In this document: piece by piece, positions 13,662 through 30,851 of the stretch
Layout of the letters: each line of letters begins with the position of its first letter
Numbering within the stretch: the stretch's first letter is position 1
From: a virus
Strand: one strand, 5' to 3'
DNA length: 38,677 bases
IMG/VR virus record: IMGVR_UViG_3300049437_000037
The notes under the pieces: model-generated
Databases searched by the model: none
Seen by the model: the letters and a program-made list of their open reading frames with translations, nothing else
What the model was told of the DNA's origin: nothing
Program-made: the position numbers and the translations under genes

Positions 13662-13699
13662 GCGGCCACACTCAAACGAGTGTGGCCGCTTTTGTTTTT
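13662..13699 (+). terminator. Rho-independent terminator
   Basis: An 11-bp perfect GC-rich stem, GCGGCCACACT (13662-13672) paired with AGTGTGGCCGC (13679-13689), with a 6-nt loop, followed by TTTTGTTTTT. Confidence 0.85.
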
Positions 13700-13712
13700 C
13701 TCAGAGGTGAAC

Positions 13713-14132
13713 ATGGTCGCAGTCATCGAATGGCTCAAGGCAGTGTTGCTCCTGGTCTGGAGCTATGACGGCGTCAAGGTGATCGTGATCGGCGTGCTGC
13801 TCAACGTGGTGCTGGCCGTGGCCGTGGCCATTCGCACCGGCACGTTCTCCTTCCAGGTCCTCGGCGAGTTCCTCACAAGACAACTGATGCCCTACGTGAT
13901 CGTTTACTTTGCCTTCAAATTGTTTGGCGAGGGTATCGGCATGGAGGGGGTCAGCCTGGCCGTGTGGGGGCTGATCGCAGCGATGATCGCCAGCTCGATT
14001 GTCGAGAAGTTGAGCGAGCTGGGCGTGCCAATTCCCGAGGGGGTGATGCGCATGGTTCGCCGGCCGCAGCGCATTGTGGAGTTCAGGCGGATCGACTCAC
14101 CGGCAGTAGCGCGAGCGGAGGTCATTCACTAA
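13713..14132 (+). CDS. Holin (Phage_holin_4_1 / TcdE-like family)
   Basis: GAGGTG lies upstream of the ATG at 13713. There are 3-4 TM helices. The C-terminal 'SSIVEKLSELGVPIPEGV' resembles the family signature '..SILEN..K.GLPVP..L'. Confidence 0.7.
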   Translation: MVAVIEWLKAVLLLVWSYDGVKVIVIGVLLNVVLAVAVAIRTGTFSFQVLGEFLTRQLMPYVIVYFAFKLFGEGIGMEGVSLAVWGLIAAMIASSIVEKLSELGVPIPEGVMRMVRRPQRIVEFRRIDSPAVARAEVIH

Positions 14133-14134
14133 GC

Positions 14135-14647
14135 ATGCCAGTCGACTATGTGGCGGTGCTGGTGGTGGCGCTTCTCGCAGTCACCGCAGCCGGGGTGGGA
14201 GTGACGGTAGTCTCAATCGTGTGGCTCATGCGCCGGCAGGACACGGCCATCCACACCATGGAGCGCGATCACAGCAATGAGATTGCGCAGATCGAGCAGA
14301 AACACCAGCGCGAAACCGAGGCGCTTCGGGCAAGGACTTTCATGCTGGAGAGTCAACAGGCCATAACGCTGCAACTCCTCCAAGAGCGGAATGTGTTCCT
14401 GCCGGCGGACGTGGCGCATGTGAAGGCGAACGGGCGCAACGATCCGGTCTTCACGGCGTTGCGCGATCTGTTCACGATGGAGCAGCTTGAGGTTCTAGCG
14501 GCTGATATTGGCATACGCCTGGAAACCCTGGGTGGCCAGTCGCTGCCGGTGGTCGCCAAGCGGCTCATGGAAGAGGCGTCGCGTGATAGCAAGTACGGGG
14601 CTCTGGTTGGCGCGATCCGTTTGGCGCGCCCGAACGCGGGAGTGTGA
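14135..14647 (+). CDS. N-terminal TM anchor, coiled coil and C-terminal EAD1-like (Death-like adaptor) helical module; occupies the position where an endolysin is expected
   Basis: The TM segment is 'VAVLVVALLAVTAAGVGVTVVSIVWL'. A heptad-like segment is 'EIAQIEQKHQRETEALRARTFMLE'. The C-terminus 'LRDLFTMEQLEVLAADIGIRLETLGGQSLPVVAKRLMEEASRDSKYGALVGAIRLARPN' fits the effector-associated-domain pattern. Confidence 0.5.
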   Translation: MPVDYVAVLVVALLAVTAAGVGVTVVSIVWLMRRQDTAIHTMERDHSNEIAQIEQKHQRETEALRARTFMLESQQAITLQLLQERNVFLPADVAHVKANGRNDPVFTALRDLFTMEQLEVLAADIGIRLETLGGQSLPVVAKRLMEEASRDSKYGALVGAIRLARPNAGV

Positions 14648-14648
14648 T

Positions 14649-15176
14649 ATGCCGACACAAGCCCCACATCCATGCGCCGCCCCAGGTTGCCCGGCCCTCG
14701 TTGAGCGGGGGCGGTATTGCCCCCAGCATGCCCCCCAGTATGTAGCCCCCCACGAGGCAGCCCGAGCCACGGCGAGCGAGCGTGGCTACGGCGCACGATG
14801 GCGCCGCTTGCGCACCATGGCACTCTCGCGCAACCCGATCTGTGCTGACCCCTGGGGCGTACACGCCAAAGCTGGCCAGGTGATTGCAGCCGTGGATGTG
14901 GACCACATTCTGCCGAGGTCACAGGGTGGCCAGGATGTGTTGGAAAACTTGCAAGGGTTGTGCCACGCATGCCACAGTCGCAAGACTGTGATGAGTGACG
15001 GTGGATTCGGTCGCGAAACCCAGGCCGGAGATGACGAGGGGAGGGGGAATCAAATCTCTGGCGCCTTTGAAGCAGAGACCGCGCGCCGCGCCTTCCGCAC
15101 GCGCCCGCAGGTTTCACCAGGGGGGTATGGCGTAGGCCCGCAGGCCACGCGGCATCCCAGGAGCGGCCAGCGATGA
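14649..15176 (+). CDS. HNH endonuclease (terminase-associated)
   Basis: An N-terminal Cys cluster 'CAAPGCPALVERGRYCPQH' is followed by 'VDVDHILPRSQGGQDVLENLQGLCHACHSRKT' (H-N-H core). It sits immediately upstream of TerS with an ATGA overlap. Confidence 0.9.
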   Translation: MPTQAPHPCAAPGCPALVERGRYCPQHAPQYVAPHEAARATASERGYGARWRRLRTMALSRNPICADPWGVHAKAGQVIAAVDVDHILPRSQGGQDVLENLQGLCHACHSRKTVMSDGGFGRETQAGDDEGRGNQISGAFEAETARRAFRTRPQVSPGGYGVGPQATRHPRSGQR

Positions 15177-15667
15177 CCAGGGGACCTGCACCCAAACCCA
15201 CGGCCGTGAAGCAGCTCGCCGGCAACCCAGGCAAGCGGTCGCTGAATGGCAGCGAACCGCAGTACACGCCGGAGCTGCCCAGCGCGCCGAGACACCTGTC
15301 GAAAGTGGCCCAGCGCGAGTGGCGCCGGGTGGGGAAGCTGTTGGTGGGTGCCGGCGTGATGACGGGCGTGGATCGCGCTGTGCTGGCGCTGTATTGCCAG
15401 GCGTATGGCCGGTGGGTCGAGGCCGAAGAGAAGCTGATCGGCGAGGACGGTGTCAGCGGCCTGACTGACCTGACGCCGAACGGCATGGTCATCCAGTCGG
15501 TGTACTTGCAGATCGCGAACAAGGCGATGGAGCAGGTCAAGCGGTACGGGGCCGAGCTGGGGCTGACGCCGGCGGCGCGCACACGGATCCACGTGCAGTC
15601 GGTCGAGGCGAAGAAGAGCCTGGCGGAGATGCTGTTCGAGGGGGTGGCCGATGGCCGCGGCGGTTGA
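15173..15667 (+). CDS. terS: Terminase small subunit, P27 family
   Basis: 'GPAPKPTAVKQLAGNPGKR...EW..V...L...GV.T..D...L..YC.AY....EAE' is the typical P27-family pattern. It is positioned upstream of TerL. Confidence 0.85.
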   Translation: MTRGPAPKPTAVKQLAGNPGKRSLNGSEPQYTPELPSAPRHLSKVAQREWRRVGKLLVGAGVMTGVDRAVLALYCQAYGRWVEAEEKLIGEDGVSGLTDLTPNGMVIQSVYLQIANKAMEQVKRYGAELGLTPAARTRIHVQSVEAKKSLAEMLFEGVADGRGG

Positions 15668-17249
15668 CCGTCTCGACGAGCGCGCAGGCGAGCGCTTCTA
15701 TTTCGATGAGCGCGCGGCCATCGTGGCGGTGGCGTTCTTCGAGCGACTGTTGCATCACTCGAAGGGCGAGTGGGCCGGGCACCTGTTTACGCTGGAGCCC
15801 TGGCAGCGGCAGATCATCCGCGAGATCTTCGGCTGGAAGCGGCGCGCCGATGGCACCCGGCGCTACCGCAAGGTCTACATTGAGATCCCGAGGAAGAACG
15901 GCAAGTCAACTCTGAGCGCCGGCATCGCGCTGTTCCTGCTGATGGCCGATGGCGAGAAGGGAGCCGAGGTGTACTCGGCGGCCGCCGATCGGGAGCAGGC
16001 CGGCATCGTGTTCCGCGAGGCGAAGGCCATGGTCAGCGACTCGCCGAGCCTGGCCGAGATGGCGCAGGTCTACAAGGGCTCAATCGTCATCGAGAGCGAG
16101 CGGTCGTACTACCGCGTACTGTCGGCGGATGCGTTCACCAAGCACGGCTTGAACGCGCACGGGGTGATGATCGACGAGCTGCACGCTCAGCCCAACCGGG
16201 AGCTGTTCGACGTGCTGGTCACCTCGACCGGTGCGCGCCGGCAGCCGATGGTGGTGATGATCACCACAGCCGGCTATGACCGCGAGTCGGTCTGCTGGGA
16301 GCAACACGAGTATGCACGCAAGATTCAGCAGGGCATCATCGACGACCCCGAGTGGTACGTGGCTATTTTTGCTGCGGACGAGGCGGACGATTGGCGCGAC
16401 CCTGCGGTGTGGGCTAAGGCTAACCCCAACCTGGGCGTGTCGGTCAAGGCCGATTACCTGGAGGCTGAGGCGAAGCGGGCCGAGCAGGTGCCTGCGTACC
16501 AGAACACGTTCCGCCGGCTGCACCTGAATCAGTGGACGCAGCAGGAGACCAAGTGGCTCGACTTGGCGATGTGGGATGCCTGCGGCGAGCCGATGGACAA
16601 GGCGCTGTTGGCTGGGGCGAAGTGCTACGGCGGACTTGACCTGGCCAGCTCCAGCGACATTGCGGCGTTCGTGTTGTGTTTCAGCGCCGAGCCGGGCGAG
16701 CCGGAGCACTACACGTGGCTGCCGCACTTCTGGATTCCGAAAGACAACATGGTTCAGCGCAGCCTGAAGGACCGCGTGCCGTATGACGCTTGGGTGCGCG
16801 ACGGCCTGATGACGGCGACCGAGGGCAACGTGATCGACTTCGAGGTGATCGTGCGCGACATCGAGGCGCTCGGCGAGGTCTACGACATCGAGGAGATCGC
16901 GTTCGACCGGTGGGGCGCGTTCCAAATCTCGACCAAGCTGACCGGCATGGGGTTCACGATGGTCGGCTTCGGACAGGGGTTCGTCAGTATGAGCCAGCCG
17001 ACGAAGGATCTGTTACGGCTGACCATGGCGCGCCAGCTCAGCCACGGCGGCAACCCGGTGTTGCGTTGGATGGCTGACAACATCGTGGTCGACCAGGACG
17101 CGGCCGGCAACGTCAAGCCGAATAAGGCCAAGTCGCGGGAGAAGATCGACGGCGTGGTGGCCGGGGTGATGGCGCTCGACCGGGCGATCAAACACTGGGG
17201 CGTCGACACGGGCAGCGTGTACGCGCATCGAGGGATCAGGACCATATGA
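15651..17249 (+). CDS. terL: Terminase large subunit (Terminase_1 family)
   Basis: 532 aa. Walker A 'IPRKNGKST' is present, along with 'FTLEPWQRQIIREIFGW' and a C-terminal nuclease region. Confidence 0.95.
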   Translation: MAAAVDRLDERAGERFYFDERAAIVAVAFFERLLHHSKGEWAGHLFTLEPWQRQIIREIFGWKRRADGTRRYRKVYIEIPRKNGKSTLSAGIALFLLMADGEKGAEVYSAAADREQAGIVFREAKAMVSDSPSLAEMAQVYKGSIVIESERSYYRVLSADAFTKHGLNAHGVMIDELHAQPNRELFDVLVTSTGARRQPMVVMITTAGYDRESVCWEQHEYARKIQQGIIDDPEWYVAIFAADEADDWRDPAVWAKANPNLGVSVKADYLEAEAKRAEQVPAYQNTFRRLHLNQWTQQETKWLDLAMWDACGEPMDKALLAGAKCYGGLDLASSSDIAAFVLCFSAEPGEPEHYTWLPHFWIPKDNMVQRSLKDRVPYDAWVRDGLMTATEGNVIDFEVIVRDIEALGEVYDIEEIAFDRWGAFQISTKLTGMGFTMVGFGQGFVSMSQPTKDLLRLTMARQLSHGGNPVLRWMADNIVVDQDAAGNVKPNKAKSREKIDGVVAGVMALDRAIKHWGVDTGSVYAHRGIRTI

Positions 17250-17446
17250 ACCGCTGGGATGTGCTGGTCGCGGTGGGGGTGATCCTGCTGGCCGTGGGCG
17301 CGGCGATGATCTCGATCCCGGCCGGGCTGATTGTGGCGGGCCTGGGATGCGCGGGGTTCGGCGCCGCCGGCGCGTGGGCCGAGAGTCGCGCTCTGGGCGG
17401 ACCTGCTGGCCCTGCCCGTGGGCCGAATGGAGGTGATCAGCCGTGA
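17246..17446 (+). CDS. Hypothetical small membrane protein between terL and portal
   Basis: ATGA overlap with terL and GTGA overlap with portal. Two hydrophobic helices. Confidence 0.45.
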   Translation: MNRWDVLVAVGVILLAVGAAMISIPAGLIVAGLGCAGFGAAGAWAESRALGGPAGPARGPNGGDQP

Positions 17447-18777: not shown

Positions 18778-19384
18778 ACTGAAGATTCCGACGAACGCGC
18801 AGGGCCACGAGGTGCGCGCCTACGACGCGCGCATGGACACCGAGGACGGCAAGCTGCGCGGGTATGCCGTGGTGTTTGATGTGCTCAGCGAGGAGATGTG
18901 GGGATTCCGCGAGCGGGTGCGGCGCGGCGCGTTTACGGCGCACCTGGCCGAGGGTGCGGACGTGCGAGCCTTGTGGCAGCACGATGTGAACTATGTGCTG
19001 GGCCGGACCAAGTCCAAGACACTGGAGCTGGTCGAGGACATCCACGGGCTGCGCAGCGTGATCGATCCGCCCGACACCCAGTGGGCGCGGGATGCGATCA
19101 CCACGATCAAGCGCGGGGATGTAGACCAGATGTCGTTCGCATTCAAGGTCGTGACGGATGAATGGAACGTCGAGGACGAAGTTCTGATCCGCACGATCGT
19201 GGACGCGAAGCTGTACGACGTTTCGCCGGTGACCTTCCCGGCGTATCCCCAAACGTCGATCAGCGCCCGTGCGGACCAGGTCCAGGTCCGGAGTGTGACG
19301 GTACCAATCACAGGTGACGACGGCGGCTCGGCGCGGCTGGCAATTCTGCGCCGGCGACTAGAGCTGGCCGAAGTTGAGATTTAG
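18758..19384 (+). CDS. Prohead maturation protease, HK97 family (S78/U35)
   Basis: 'RGYAVVFDV.S......RERV.RGAF...L....DV.ALWQHD....LGRT' and 'L.DVS.VTFPAY' are present. It lies between the portal and capsid genes. Confidence 0.9.
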   Translation: MKERRFELKIPTNAQGHEVRAYDARMDTEDGKLRGYAVVFDVLSEEMWGFRERVRRGAFTAHLAEGADVRALWQHDVNYVLGRTKSKTLELVEDIHGLRSVIDPPDTQWARDAITTIKRGDVDQMSFAFKVVTDEWNVEDEVLIRTIVDAKLYDVSPVTFPAYPQTSISARADQVQVRSVTVPITGDDGGSARLAILRRRLELAEVEI

Positions 19385-23590: not shown

Positions 23591-24080
23591 TGTGCTGGGC
23601 GTCAAGATGGAGGGCGGCGAAGAGATGCTGAAGGCGCTTGCCGACCTCGGCGAGAACGTTAAGAAAACGCTCAGAGGCTCCATGCGCGTCGGCGGGCGGG
23701 TCATCCAGGCCGATGCCGATGCCCGCGCGCCCAGTTCGAGGTCCGGAAAGAAGGCCGTGTTGAAGGTGTCATCGCCCAAGCGCGGCCAGGTCGAGGCGCG
23801 CATTCAGCCGTCGAAGCGGTTCTGGTATCTCAAGTTCGCCGAAACCGGCACGACCCGGCACGAGATCAAGGCCGGCGGCGGTAAGCCGATCACGTTCGAG
23901 GGCGATACGGGCCTGATTCGCACCGGTGTGGTGAGCCACCCCGGCGCGCCGGCGCGGCCCTGGTTGCGGCCTGCGTTCGACAGCAAATCGGGCGAAGCGG
24001 TTGACGCGCTTGGCGAGTCGCTGCGCGGGGCGGTCGAGGCGGCCAGGATTGCAGCCGAAGGGCAGGATGACGAAGACTAA
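23583..24080 (+). CDS. HK97 gp10-family tail/neck component
   Basis: 'ARAP..SG.....L........V..RI.PS.R.WYLKF.E.GT' and 'HPG.PARPWLRPAFD' are present. Confidence 0.8.
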   Translation: MGDVLGVKMEGGEEMLKALADLGENVKKTLRGSMRVGGRVIQADADARAPSSRSGKKAVLKVSSPKRGQVEARIQPSKRFWYLKFAETGTTRHEIKAGGGKPITFEGDTGLIRTGVVSHPGAPARPWLRPAFDSKSGEAVDALGESLRGAVEAARIAAEGQDDED

Positions 24081-24493: not shown

Positions 24494-25861
24494 ATGGGTT
24501 TTTATCGTAATCGATACAGTGGCGCAAAGCCAGCCGTGGTCGTGGCTGTGCTGGCCGCATTCGTGGTGTTGGCCTGCATCGTTGGGCCGGCTGTGCCGGC
24601 GCTGTTCGCGCGCACGCCGCCGGCGGTGGGTGCCCAAGTGGGTGCCCAGGCCACCCCGCGAGTGGTGGACCACACCACGATCAACCTGTTCTATCAGCTC
24701 GCGGCGGATGATGTGGAGCTGGCTCGCTTACGTTCGTGGCTCGTGATGTACGGTGATAAGTCGGTCGGCGACAACATCCGCACGGGGCTGACGTGCCTGG
24801 CCGGCACGGGCCCGGACAGTTGCGCGCCGGCGCTGGAGCAGCTCGGCCTAACAGATCTGGCCGGGCCACGTTTCAGCATGACCAACATCCGCTACGCGAT
24901 GATGGACGAGGCGGGGTGCGGGAACTGGGACGAGCTGGGGCAGTGTTTCCAGAACGAAGTCAACGCCATGCCGGGCGACTACGCCGCGCTGTCCTGGGGC
25001 CACAGCTACATGGAGGTCGAGCAGCCGGACGTGTTGCGGTATTTCAACGACCTCGGCGCGCCGGGCAACGTGGTCGCATATGAAGGCTACCAGGACACGA
25101 AGGGCGTGCCGCGCTGGTACTGGACCAGCTCGCTGAACAACGGTTCGAACGATGAGGCGGCCAGCTATAACGCGGCGATGCGGGCTCGTGCGACCCAAAC
25201 GGGCGGTGTGTTGCTCGACACGGCTGACCTGTTGAGTTACGACCTGAACGGCGATGCGTGCACGTCGTTGCTGGGGTACATGCCGGGCCTGTGCAATCCC
25301 GCCTACACCATCCAGACCACGGTAGGCGGCGGGCATCTGACCAAGCTCGGCCAGGTTCGCGGGGCAATGGCGGTGTGGCTGTCCCTGGCGTTCCTGGATG
25401 GCTGGTCAGGCGCGCCGGAGCCGCCACCAGAGCCCAGCGCCACCGCGACCAGCATCCTACAAAGCCCGCTGGCCACGCCCACGCCGCCATGCGCGTGTGA
25501 GCCGTGTCCGTGCACGACGGTGACAGTGACGCCCACGGTGGTTCCTGCGACGGCTACGGCGACGGCGACCGCTACTCCGCGCCCAACGGCCACGTCAACA
25601 CGCACGCCCGCGCCGACAGTGACGCCCACGGCCGTACCCACGGCCGTACCCACGGCCGTTCCCACGGTCGCGCCCACCGCTACGGCTGGCGGAGTGCAGT
25701 GTGTGATGGCCGCCGACATGGCCGCGTTCACGGCGGACCTATACGAGACCGTTCTCAACTATCCATATCAGAACTGGAGCGCGATCGTCAACGGCGGCGC
25801 GATCACGCAAATGAAGGTGCGCGCTCAGAAGACGGCGTGCGAGGCGCAGGCGCAACGATGA
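24494..25861 (+). CDS. N-terminally membrane-anchored protein with a putative SGNH/GDSL-like hydrolase domain, a long Pro/Thr/Ala linker and a small Cys-containing C-terminal domain
   Basis: The Ala/Gly/Val-rich TM is 'AVVVAVLAAFVVLACIVGPAVPALFA'. Candidate SGNH blocks are 'YGDKSVGDN', 'GSNDEAASYNAAMRA...GGVLLDTADLL' and 'GGGHLTKLG'. The linker reads 'TPTVVPATATATATATPRPTATSTRTPAPTVTPTAVPTAVPTAVPTVAPTA'. Confidence 0.6.
   Translation: MGFYRNRYSGAKPAVVVAVLAAFVVLACIVGPAVPALFARTPPAVGAQVGAQATPRVVDHTTINLFYQLAADDVELARLRSWLVMYGDKSVGDNIRTGLTCLAGTGPDSCAPALEQLGLTDLAGPRFSMTNIRYAMMDEAGCGNWDELGQCFQNEVNAMPGDYAALSWGHSYMEVEQPDVLRYFNDLGAPGNVVAYEGYQDTKGVPRWYWTSSLNNGSNDEAASYNAAMRARATQTGGVLLDTADLLSYDLNGDACTSLLGYMPGLCNPAYTIQTTVGGGHLTKLGQVRGAMAVWLSLAFLDGWSGAPEPPPEPSATATSILQSPLATPTPPCACEPCPCTTVTVTPTVVPATATATATATPRPTATSTRTPAPTVTPTAVPTAVPTAVPTVAPTATAGGVQCVMAADMAAFTADLYETVLNYPYQNWSAIVNGGAITQMKVRAQKTACEAQAQR
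25625..25672 (+). repeat. 12-bp tandem repeat (CCCACGGCCGTA-type x4) encoding (PTAV)n in the linker
   Basis: Units at 25625-36, 25637-48 and 25649-60, with a degenerate unit at 25661-72. Confidence 0.8.
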
Positions 25862-29666: not shown

Positions 29667-30095
29667 ATGGCACTCAGTGCATTCGGTACGTTGTTGAAAA
29701 TCGGTGACGGCGCGGGGCCGGAGGTGTTCACCACGGTCGCCGAGGTCAAGGCGATCGGCGGGCCGACGATCAAGGTGGACACGGTCGACCTGACCACGCA
29801 CAGTTCGACGGGCGCCTGGCGCGAGTTCATGCCGACCCTGATCGACGCCGGCGAGTTGACGTTCGATGTCAACTTCATCCCGACCAACGCCACGCAGAGC
29901 CAGTCGACGGGGTTGCTGAAGGACCTGAAGAACCGCACGAAGCGCAACTGGCAATTGGTGTTCCCGGATGGCAGCAGCACCACGTGGGCGTTCGCCGCCT
30001 ATGTGACCGGGTTCCAGATCTCGGCGCCGCCGGACGACCTGCTCGGCGCGAGTGTGACGTTGCGCCTGACTGGGCAGCCGACGTTGGCCGGATAG
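29667..30095 (+). CDS. Major tail protein (TP901-1/phi13-like)
   Basis: GGAGG lies upstream of the ATG. 'FGTLLKIGDG.....F..VAEVK.I.GP......VD.T.H.S....EF.P.LID.GE..F' is the family pattern. The chaperone/TMP genes lie downstream. Confidence 0.8.
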   Translation: MALSAFGTLLKIGDGAGPEVFTTVAEVKAIGGPTIKVDTVDLTTHSSTGAWREFMPTLIDAGELTFDVNFIPTNATQSQSTGLLKDLKNRTKRNWQLVFPDGSSTTWAFAAYVTGFQISAPPDDLLGASVTLRLTGQPTLAG

Positions 30096-30545: not shown

Positions 30546-30851
30546 ATGGGGCGCACGGTCGCCGAGTTGCAGGCGGCCATGAGCAGCCGGGAGTTCACCG
30601 AGTGGCAAGCGTACTTCGCGCTGGAGCCGTTCGGCGAAGAGCGGGCCGACATCCGGGCGGCGCTGGTGGCCAGCGTGATCGCCAACGTGAACCGCAACCC
30701 GAAGAAGCGGTCGAGCCCGTTCGCTGTGAAGGACTTCATGCTGAGGTTTGGCGAAGCGGCCGGGTCACGTGAGCAGAGCGTAGAGCAGCAACTGAGCCTG
30801 GTCGAGATGCTGAACGCGGCGTTCGGCGGAGTGGATAAGAGAAAACACTGA
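30546..30851 (+). CDS. Tail assembly chaperone extension (gpT-like); probably made mainly as a G-T fusion
   Basis: It is in the -1 frame relative to the 30139 gene. 'FTEWQAYFALEPFGEERADIRAA' resembles gpT-type segments. There is a TGATG junction with TMP. Confidence 0.7.
   Translation: MGRTVAELQAAMSSREFTEWQAYFALEPFGEERADIRAALVASVIANVNRNPKKRSSPFAVKDFMLRFGEAAGSREQSVEQQLSLVEMLNAAFGGVDKRKH

Follow-up and report, generated by a model that had tools for sequence, protein, structure and literature searches.

Why does a phage encode, directly behind its holin, a small membrane protein that ends in an adaptor domain found elsewhere only in suicide-type immune systems of multicellular bacteria? This question is raised by a 170-aa protein encoded at positions 14135−14647 (+) of a 38,677-nt viral stretch (IMG/VR record IMGVR_UViG_3300049437_000037), the full length of which is referred to here as the window. 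The reading frame extends from the ATG at 14135 to the TGA at 14645−14647, with a GGAGGT at 14117−14122, 12 nt ahead of the ATG, and it opens 3 nt beyond the TAA stop codon of the holin gene (14130−14132). These coordinates agreed exactly with an earlier reading of the same DNA (the original prediction), and its assignment of the upstream gene as Phage_holin_4_1-like was also confirmed (27.0 bits in Pfam against a cut-off of 22.2). Using open reading frame (ORF) analysis, Pfam searches, AlphaFold2 modelling and comparison of homologues, we identified the product as a holin-adjacent membrane protein with a C-terminal effector-associated domain 7 (EAD7). A holin partner ending in EAD7 suggests a link between phage lysis and host death signalling. 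Retention of the full length in at least 20 diverged homologues and a ratio of nonsynonymous to synonymous substitution rates (dN/dS) of ~0.2 against a 71%-identical relative argued that the gene is real and, overall, under purifying selection.

The identity of the C-terminal module was established by four lines of evidence. First, a search of the protein returned EAD7 (PF19960) as the top Pfam match (E = 1.4e-6, 28.4 bits, profile positions 2−62 of 62), and a precomputed PF19960 match is present in its nearest two homologues (75% and 71% identity). Second, EAD7 was matched by 24 of the 25 family members searched (E-values down to 3.9e-20), and both P0007 (45.6 bits) and P0026 (56.5 bits) scored above the Pfam cut-off. 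Third, a phmmer search against 1.84 billion representative proteins returned 28 matches; 23 were small proteins, nearly all with the same architecture, and the other five were large cellular proteins aligned only via residues ~96−169, with E-values down to 1.3e-9. These cellular proteins (P0010, P0016, P0018, P0021 and P0030) combine 3−5 tandem EAD7 copies with NACHT/NPHP3_N, CHAT, bDLD1, pYEATS or N_BRCA1_IG domains. Fourth, a hidden Markov model (HMM) made from the C-termini of the phage proteins alone detected all 21 EAD7 repeats of the five cellular proteins (i-E 1e-9 to 1e-22, up to 66 bits). The phage and cellular segments aligned without gaps and had in common the signature F-x-x-E-E-L ... 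L-x-G ... R-P. Because these lines converged, the EAD7 assignment was secure despite a sub-threshold Pfam score of the protein itself, indicating that the C-terminal bundle is a true EAD7 homologue and not an EAD1. The original prediction had proposed an EAD1-type module from a peptide that corresponds to residues 109−167. The effector-associated domain stood and the subtype did not: the protein had no EAD1 (PF19955) match in Pfam at E up to 1, and in 15 of 25 relatives EAD1 was a weaker secondary match (best E-value 1.3e-5). EAD1, EAD6 and EAD7 are distantly related all-alpha domains (PMC7159879).

To describe the overall architecture, we built an AlphaFold2 model from a 25-sequence alignment, which reached a mean predicted local distance difference test (pLDDT) score of 89.5. 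The model showed a continuous helix over residues 3−84, hydrophobic at 5−32 and charged and Q/H-rich thereafter, a short helix at 90−99 and a five-helix bundle at 104−164, consistent with the N-terminal transmembrane (TM) helix and the C-terminal helical module of ~60 aa expected from the original prediction. Residues 1−32 (14135−14230, +) comprise an acidic 4-residue N-terminus and the single TM helix (pLDDT 85−95). Residues 33−85 (14231−14389, +) form a predicted helical stalk, ~8 nm long if straight, modelled as helix up to residue 84 with pLDDT >90. A lower-confidence linker with the one short helix follows at residues 86−103 (14390−14443, +; pLDDT 62−75), and residues 104−170 (14444−14644, +) make up the EAD7 bundle (Pfam match over residues 106−166), the C-terminus of which carries the family RPN motif. 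The stalk had been described as a charged heptad-like segment; the charged helix was borne out, and the heptad periodicity was not significant, since 1845 of 5000 shuffled sequences equalled it. On the model, the segment is thus best described as a helical stalk and not as a demonstrated coiled coil. The EAD7 domain is small and all-alpha with no catalytic motif, ends 4 residues short of the C-terminus of the protein (pLDDT 87−95 over residues 104−164) and is fused only to the TM helix and the charged helix.

Structural comparison of the full-length protein with Foldseek was dominated by the long helix, and the EAD7 domain was therefore modelled alone (pLDDT 86.9). The top three matches in the PDB were a bacterial death-like domain (8srz, TMq 0.54), FADD (6aci_H, 0.53) and the Fas-FADD complex (9ncq, 0.52), all of them weak (E 3.1−3.8, probability 0.33−0.38), and the model has five helices compared to six in the death-like fold. 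A Death-like fold was therefore weakly supported by the model. A sequence-profile search of the PDB with the domain returned only spurious matches to designed repeats and no solved EAD7 structure. Separately, the top viral structural match of the EAD7 model in BFVD was A0A2H4P853, a 63-aa protein of Pseudomonas phage ventosus (TMq 0.63, TMt 0.75, probability 1.0, E = 0.21). This isolated phage may possess an EAD-like helical bundle as a separate protein. PADLOC and NCBIfam gave no matches for the protein, its neighbours or the cellular EAD7 proteins.

The charges that flank the TM helix allowed its orientation to be predicted. Helix 5−32 has no K/R on its N-terminal side and is followed by RRQD on its C-terminal side; across 26 family members, the N-terminal flank was acidic with 0−1 K/R, and the 15 residues C-terminal of the helix contained 2−6 K/R in all but one. 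According to the positive-inside rule, these charges predict N-out/C-in insertion with the stalk and EAD7 in the cytoplasm, as expected for an EAD. The orientation bears directly on whether the protein could be an Rz-like i-spanin, which brings about fusion of the inner with the outer membrane through a membrane-anchored coiled coil in the periplasm. A long helix that follows a TM segment, encoded behind a holin, would suit a spanin, and the protein matched the Rz-like spanin phrog_1403 in PHROG (E = 7.4e-4, residues 7−129), a weak similarity attributable to the TM and charged-helix composition. However, the topology predicted throughout the family is the opposite of that of an i-spanin, and the C-terminal domain is of a cytoplasmic adaptor type. 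No lipobox motif was present in any plus-strand frame of 13650−15200, leaving no embedded or adjacent o-spanin candidate. In addition, Chloroflexota, the probable hosts (see below), are generally regarded as having no classical outer membrane. On the opposite predicted topology and the missing lipobox ORF, we reject i-spanin identity and assign next to no probability to it.

We next consider the position of the gene, which the original prediction had called the endolysin slot. Homologues of the window holin (35−63% identity) were found in nine other phage loci. In all seven of these loci with 35−44% identity, the next gene encoded a small membrane-anchored coiled-coil protein without EAD7: five of the proteins have an N-terminal TM segment followed by a helix with the charge pattern of the 170-aa protein, and in the other two the helix precedes a C-terminal TM segment, one of this pair (L058) weakly matching XhlA (18.8 bits). 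Recognisable endolysins came later, two or more genes past the holin (Peptidase_M23 in L059, Amidase_2 in L063). Locus L061 had a gene order identical to the window, in which the holin gene is followed by genes for a TM-helix protein (81 aa), an HNH endonuclease and the small (TerS) and large (TerL) terminase subunits, with a TerL 54% identical to that of the window. Because all seven loci hold a membrane-anchored coiled-coil protein here and the endolysin further downstream, gene order identifies this position as a conserved holin-partner slot and not as an endolysin slot. The 170-aa protein is thus a holin partner with EAD7 added at its C-terminus, the equivalence being positional and architectural. 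By analogy, the nearest studied counterpart is the PBSX membrane protein XhlA, which lysis requires in addition to the holin XhlB and the endolysin XlyA (PMC5589764, PMC6834076); a Pfam search of the 170-aa protein returned no XhlA (PF10779) match at E up to 1.

The combination of a membrane anchor and EAD7 defined a family of at least 26 clusters at 50% identity, which is undescribed. In all ten members with a readable context (the window and loci L001, L050, L055, L048, L052, L054, L018, L019 and L053), the gene was located in a phage or prophage late region and followed a small multi-TM holin-like gene, either directly or after one small intervening gene. By inspection, the holin-like genes fell into at least three types dissimilar in sequence. 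Coupling was often tight: the two genes share 4 nt in L001 and L055 and are separated by 3−4 nt in the window and L048. The terminase usually lay a few kb 3′ of the EAD7 gene. A small single-TM gene (46−79 aa) adjoined the EAD7 gene in six lineages (L001 4304−4471, L050 2265−2405, L055 755−994, L018 9804−9998, L019 9792−9998 and L053 10533−10718) and may represent a third cassette component; it is absent from the window, where the HNH gene comes next. In L019, whose phage carries the family member P0031, and also in L020 and L021, we observed a gene for PycTM (PF18967, a Pycsar-type TM effector; L019 7892−8377, −) ~1 kb upstream of the holin-like gene, which suggests defence cargo near the lysis cassette. 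In further searches, tblastn with three EAD7 queries against 50,697 GenBank phage records gave no match, a pattern scan of IMG/VR with the family alignment gave no true relative, and word-indexed profile searches of a 5.8-billion-protein set added few members.

Variation within the family was examined between the window protein and lineage P0003 (L001 3792−4304), whose genes co-occur in the same samples. The EAD7 parts are 54% identical, compared to 83−84% for the TM helix and stalk, and dN/dS was 0.32 for EAD7 versus 0.10−0.12 for the TM and stalk, these regional ratios being of limited value because dS exceeds 1. The comparison of these P0001- and P0003-type genes gives a hint of EAD7-specific diversification, which recombination could also explain.

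The late expression of the gene was predicted from the layout of the surrounding operon. A strong intrinsic terminator lies just 5′ of the holin at 13662−13699 (+), consisting of a 12-bp stem with 9 G-C pairs and a 4-nt loop (13662−13689) followed by a T-tract. It precedes the gene for the 139-aa multi-TM holin (13713−14132, +; GAGGTG Shine-Dalgarno at 13704−13709), the EAD7 gene and, 2 nt past the stop codon of the latter, the HNH endonuclease (14649−15176, +; Pfam HNH 40.2 bits, phrog_144 E = 1.4e-27), the first packaging-associated gene. TerS (15173−15667, +) and TerL (15651−17249, +) follow, assigned from precomputed matches on the identical genes to Terminase_4 and to TerL_ATPase/TerL_nuclease, respectively. 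From 13700 to 15800, a stretch with the holin, EAD7, HNH and TerS genes, the scan revealed no second terminator-like site, nor did it show a promoter-like site of the EAD7 gene's own. By analogy with lambda tR′, the terminator at 13662 would mark the head of the late operon. As this layout places the lysis genes first, as in lambda, the EAD7 gene is predicted to be a late gene, and the arrangement of sites shows putative late co-transcription with the holin and packaging genes.

The genome and its likely host provided further context. The window ends 1−127 and 38551−38677 form an exact 127-bp repeat, indicating a closed circular assembly and a complete genome of 38,550 bp, in which a six-frame HMM search detected a single EAD7 and no second one. 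The phage is a temperate HK97-like siphovirus. The top TerL relatives in genomes came from a Chloroflexota metagenome-assembled genome (MAG; 70%) and from Ca. Caldilinea saccharophila (63%), and the cellular protein P0030, with NACHT-CHAT and four EAD7 copies, came from an Anaerolineaceae MAG. These TerL relatives and the Anaerolineaceae EAD7 protein indicate that the host is probably a filamentous member of the Chloroflexota, a phylum in which EAD systems have been reported (PMC7159879). TerL-related loci in GTDB contained no EAD7 ORF, a result uninformative for Chloroflexota, as the two Chloroflexota loci lacked the upstream region.

What could EAD7 add to a holin partner? Homotypic binding has been proposed as the sole mode of action of EADs, through which effectors would be linked to the core components (PMC7159879, PMC8195603). 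We tentatively favor the interpretation that, late in infection, the phage EAD7 engages EAD7-bearing conflict proteins of the host at the inner membrane face and acts as either a decoy or a sensor. Contact with host EAD7 appears the most likely reading because EADs are homotypic, a plain partner suffices in other phages, and the phage domains closely keep the cellular signature. The holin partner would be anchored in the membrane and expressed late, with its long helix and EAD7 facing the cytoplasm, and the added domain would bind host EAD7-bearing proteins at the inner membrane face. One option is that it would cap or sequester these proteins as a membrane-tethered decoy, so that an abortive-infection cascade could not recruit its effectors; the other is that it would signal to the holin that they have become active. 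If the phage stalk oligomerised, it could resemble the cellular array of 3−5 EAD7 copies. Somewhat more doubtful is the wider proposal that lysis in phages of filamentous Chloroflexota is wired into host EAD7 suicide signalling, where the phage protein either caps host NACHT/CHAT-EAD7 assemblies or is drawn into them and triggers the holin early, allowing virions to escape before abortive infection is completed.

Several points weigh against contact with a host protein. The constant holin adjacency (10/10) is explained no less well by a purely lytic function than by an anti-defence one, and the anti-defence genes known so far are mostly early genes without a tie to holins. EAD7 might be present for self-association alone, and its host partner is hypothetical. 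The Pfam score of 28.4 bits is 3.6 bits under the gathering score of 32. Alignments of the TM and helix part between the 170-aa protein and the EAD7-less partners were co-linear but scored at most 23 bits with strong compositional bias, so that homology of these parts was not demonstrable from them. Finally, faster evolution of the EAD7 part was seen in one of two close comparisons only, with dS saturated.

The adjacency is the natural starting point for an explanation confined to the phage, in which EAD7 self-assembles, clusters or separates the anchors or the holin and sets lysis timing as an antiholin or holin co-factor with no host partner. Such a self-contained lysis regulator would account for the strict adjacency and the coupling to holins of several families, as well as for EAD7-less membrane-anchored coiled-coil partners in the same slot. 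XhlA/XhlB of PBSX provides a precedent (PMC5589764, PMC6834076), and self-assembly has been proposed for death-fold and EAD domains (PMC8195603). Yet a plain helix is enough for related phages, and the basic task therefore calls for no EAD7. Moreover, the cellular signature is kept to the extent that cellular repeats reach 66 bits with the HMM of phage proteins alone, as would be anticipated if heterotypic contact with the cellular domain were still important. We therefore regard the self-contained regulator as unlikely, while a serious contender, and retain the decoy or sensor as the preferred interpretation.

The temperate lifestyle of the phage, with its integrase gene at 222−1541 (−), opens a different route by which EAD7 could meet host proteins. 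The prophage might supply a defence effector, an EAD-tagged membrane disruptor that the EAD7 STAND system of the lysogen recruits upon superinfection to cause abortive infection, analogous to Bell-domain effectors triggered by templated assembly. For effectors encoded apart from their core, the EAD principle predicts just such an architecture, in which a membrane-active N-terminus is joined to a homotypic adaptor at the terminus (PMC7159879). The Bab/Agp pair in prophage hotspots offers an analogue (bioRxiv 10.1101/2024.11.07.622273), and the PycTM gene near the cassette of a related phage points the same way. However, the gene is part of the late operon that a terminator precedes and is closely coupled to the holin, and its late placement with no promoter-like site of its own argues against expression in a lysogen. 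In addition, its position is conserved beside holins in 10/10 contexts and not in moron or defence hotspots. This role is quite improbable.

The remaining alternative arises from the apparent absence of an endolysin. Searches of Pfam, PHROGs or NCBIfam revealed no endolysin domain in ~50 ORFs, including every gene-called ORF of at least 118 aa in the complete genome. The 170-aa protein itself had no peptidoglycan-hydrolase domain in Pfam, PHROG or NCBIfam and was wholly helical in the model. It could then act as a recruiter in place of an endolysin, a role that the original prediction had put forward beside that of a decoy: its EAD7 would draw a lytic effector of the host that is itself fused to EAD7, for instance a CHAT protease, to the membrane for lysis. 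Cellular EAD7 proteins do bear CHAT and other effector domains. Nevertheless, candidates for wall-active proteins accompany the EAD7 gene. Just upstream of the terminator in the window, 12755−13585 (+) encodes a signal-anchored Pro/Thr-rich protein of 276 aa with two tandem repeats of ~95 aa, the corresponding DNA repeats being spaced 285−291 nt. It had no match in Pfam, PHROG, NCBIfam, PDB or PADLOC, and an SH3_3 domain with a Cys-rich tail is encoded at the equivalent position of the related locus L001; it is possibly a wall-binding or wall-degrading protein or a cell-wall-directed lysis accessory. In three distant family members, a large secreted protein is encoded 3′ of the EAD7 gene (L018 10612−12330, L019 10579−11403 and L054 10545−11981). 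These proteins have a Cys-rich segment in common, one carries a dockerin-like N-terminal motif, and all are without family assignment, which makes them candidates for novel lysins. A weakly C39-like protein is present alongside the EAD7-bearing member in L053. An unrecognised endolysin in Chloroflexota phages is in any case weak evidence of absence, and a phage whose lysis hinged on a variable immune gene of the host would run a risk. Recruitment of a host enzyme for lysis is therefore very improbable, and the decoy or sensor remains the interpretation that we prefer.

The rest of the genome contained a Prim-Pol gene (1592−3265, −) next to the integrase and structural genes, with the portal at 17443−18777, the capsid at 19374−20726, a tail-completion gene at 24080−24490, the tail tube at 29667−30095 and the tape measure at 30851−32752. 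Between the tail-completion gene and the tail tube, ~5 kb of ORFs (24494−29697) had no family matches, apart from a GerE/LuxR-type helix-turn-helix regulator at 25504−26052. This unusual insertion in the structural module could be cargo.

Both components of the 170-aa protein, the EAD7 domain and the lysis-cassette partner type, are known, and the two papers that defined EADs contain no description of the two fused in a phage-encoded protein. The words "holin" and "prophage" are absent from these papers (PMC7159879, PMC8195603), which use "phage" only in other contexts and mention no phage-encoded EAD, and a full-text literature search combining holin with EAD terms returned nothing relevant. 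In the lysin literature, "EAD" stands for "enzymatically active domain", which is unrelated to the effector-associated domain. EADs were defined by comparative genomics alone. They were described as adaptors in the NTP-dependent systems by which multicellular bacteria achieve suicide and immunity, and their proposed homotypic binding has hardly been tested. A 170-aa phage protein with a single EAD7 thus represents a natural reagent for probing EAD7 interactions. The locus also adds to the picture of the poorly known lysis cassettes of Chloroflexota phages, in which the endolysin is not even recognisable, and the comparison shows a conserved slot for a membrane-anchored helical partner in the window holin family.

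Comparison with known systems places the protein between cellular conflict systems and phage lysis proteins. EAD7 (PF19960) belongs to conflict systems of the vWA-MoxR/VMAP, STAND-NTPase and TRADD-N types (Kaur, Burroughs, Iyer and Aravind 2020/2021; PMC7159879, PMC8195603). With cellular EAD7, the phage domain shares homology over the 62-position profile, a small all-alpha non-catalytic build, terminal placement and the common signature. In contrast to the cellular domains, it is phage-encoded in a lysis cassette, present as a single copy and not in an array of 3−5 copies, and fused to a membrane anchor and helix instead of an NTPase, peptidase or nucleotide-processing effector, with no partner EAD7 in the phage genome. 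The Bab/Agp system consists of a Bell-domain effector and a sensor sharing an amyloid motif, and is found in E. coli prophage hotspots; the paper on it lists EAD7 among the motif-associated domains (bioRxiv 10.1101/2024.11.07.622273). It resembles the phage protein in combining a membrane-targeting N-terminus with a short C-terminal homotypic module, which acts by templating in Bab/Agp. There, however, the module is the amyloid BASS11, whereas the phage module is a helical EAD7 that has no adjacent sensor gene and resides in a late lysis operon and not in a defence hotspot.

Among lysis proteins, Rz-type i-spanins share with the 170-aa protein a single TM helix followed by a long helix, a gene in the lysis cassette and weak PHROG similarity, and they differ in a topology opposite to the one predicted here, their o-spanin partner and their periplasmic domain. 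XhlA of Bacillus subtilis PBSX is likewise small and anchored in the membrane, has a coiled-coil-like helix in the cytoplasm and is encoded beside a holin in a phage of hosts regarded as monoderm. Compared to XhlA, the 170-aa protein lacks an XhlA profile match, its anchor is N-terminal and not C-terminal, its gene lies downstream and not upstream of the holin, and it carries the extra EAD7. A model for the decoy role is found among eukaryotic viruses, which encode death-fold-only decoys such as the vFLIP DED proteins and the poxvirus pyrin-only proteins, each a lone homotypic adaptor of the kind used in host death and immune complexes. The phage protein is likewise a virus-encoded lone homotypic adaptor, although it has no homology to these decoys beyond a possibly shared helical-bundle fold (Foldseek E ~3) and differs from them in being membrane-tethered, late and holin-linked. 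If it does act as an immune antagonist or sensor, it would extend the parallel of viral death-fold decoys to prokaryotes, and as a protein that caps or sequesters host EAD7 assemblies it would represent their first prokaryotic counterpart.

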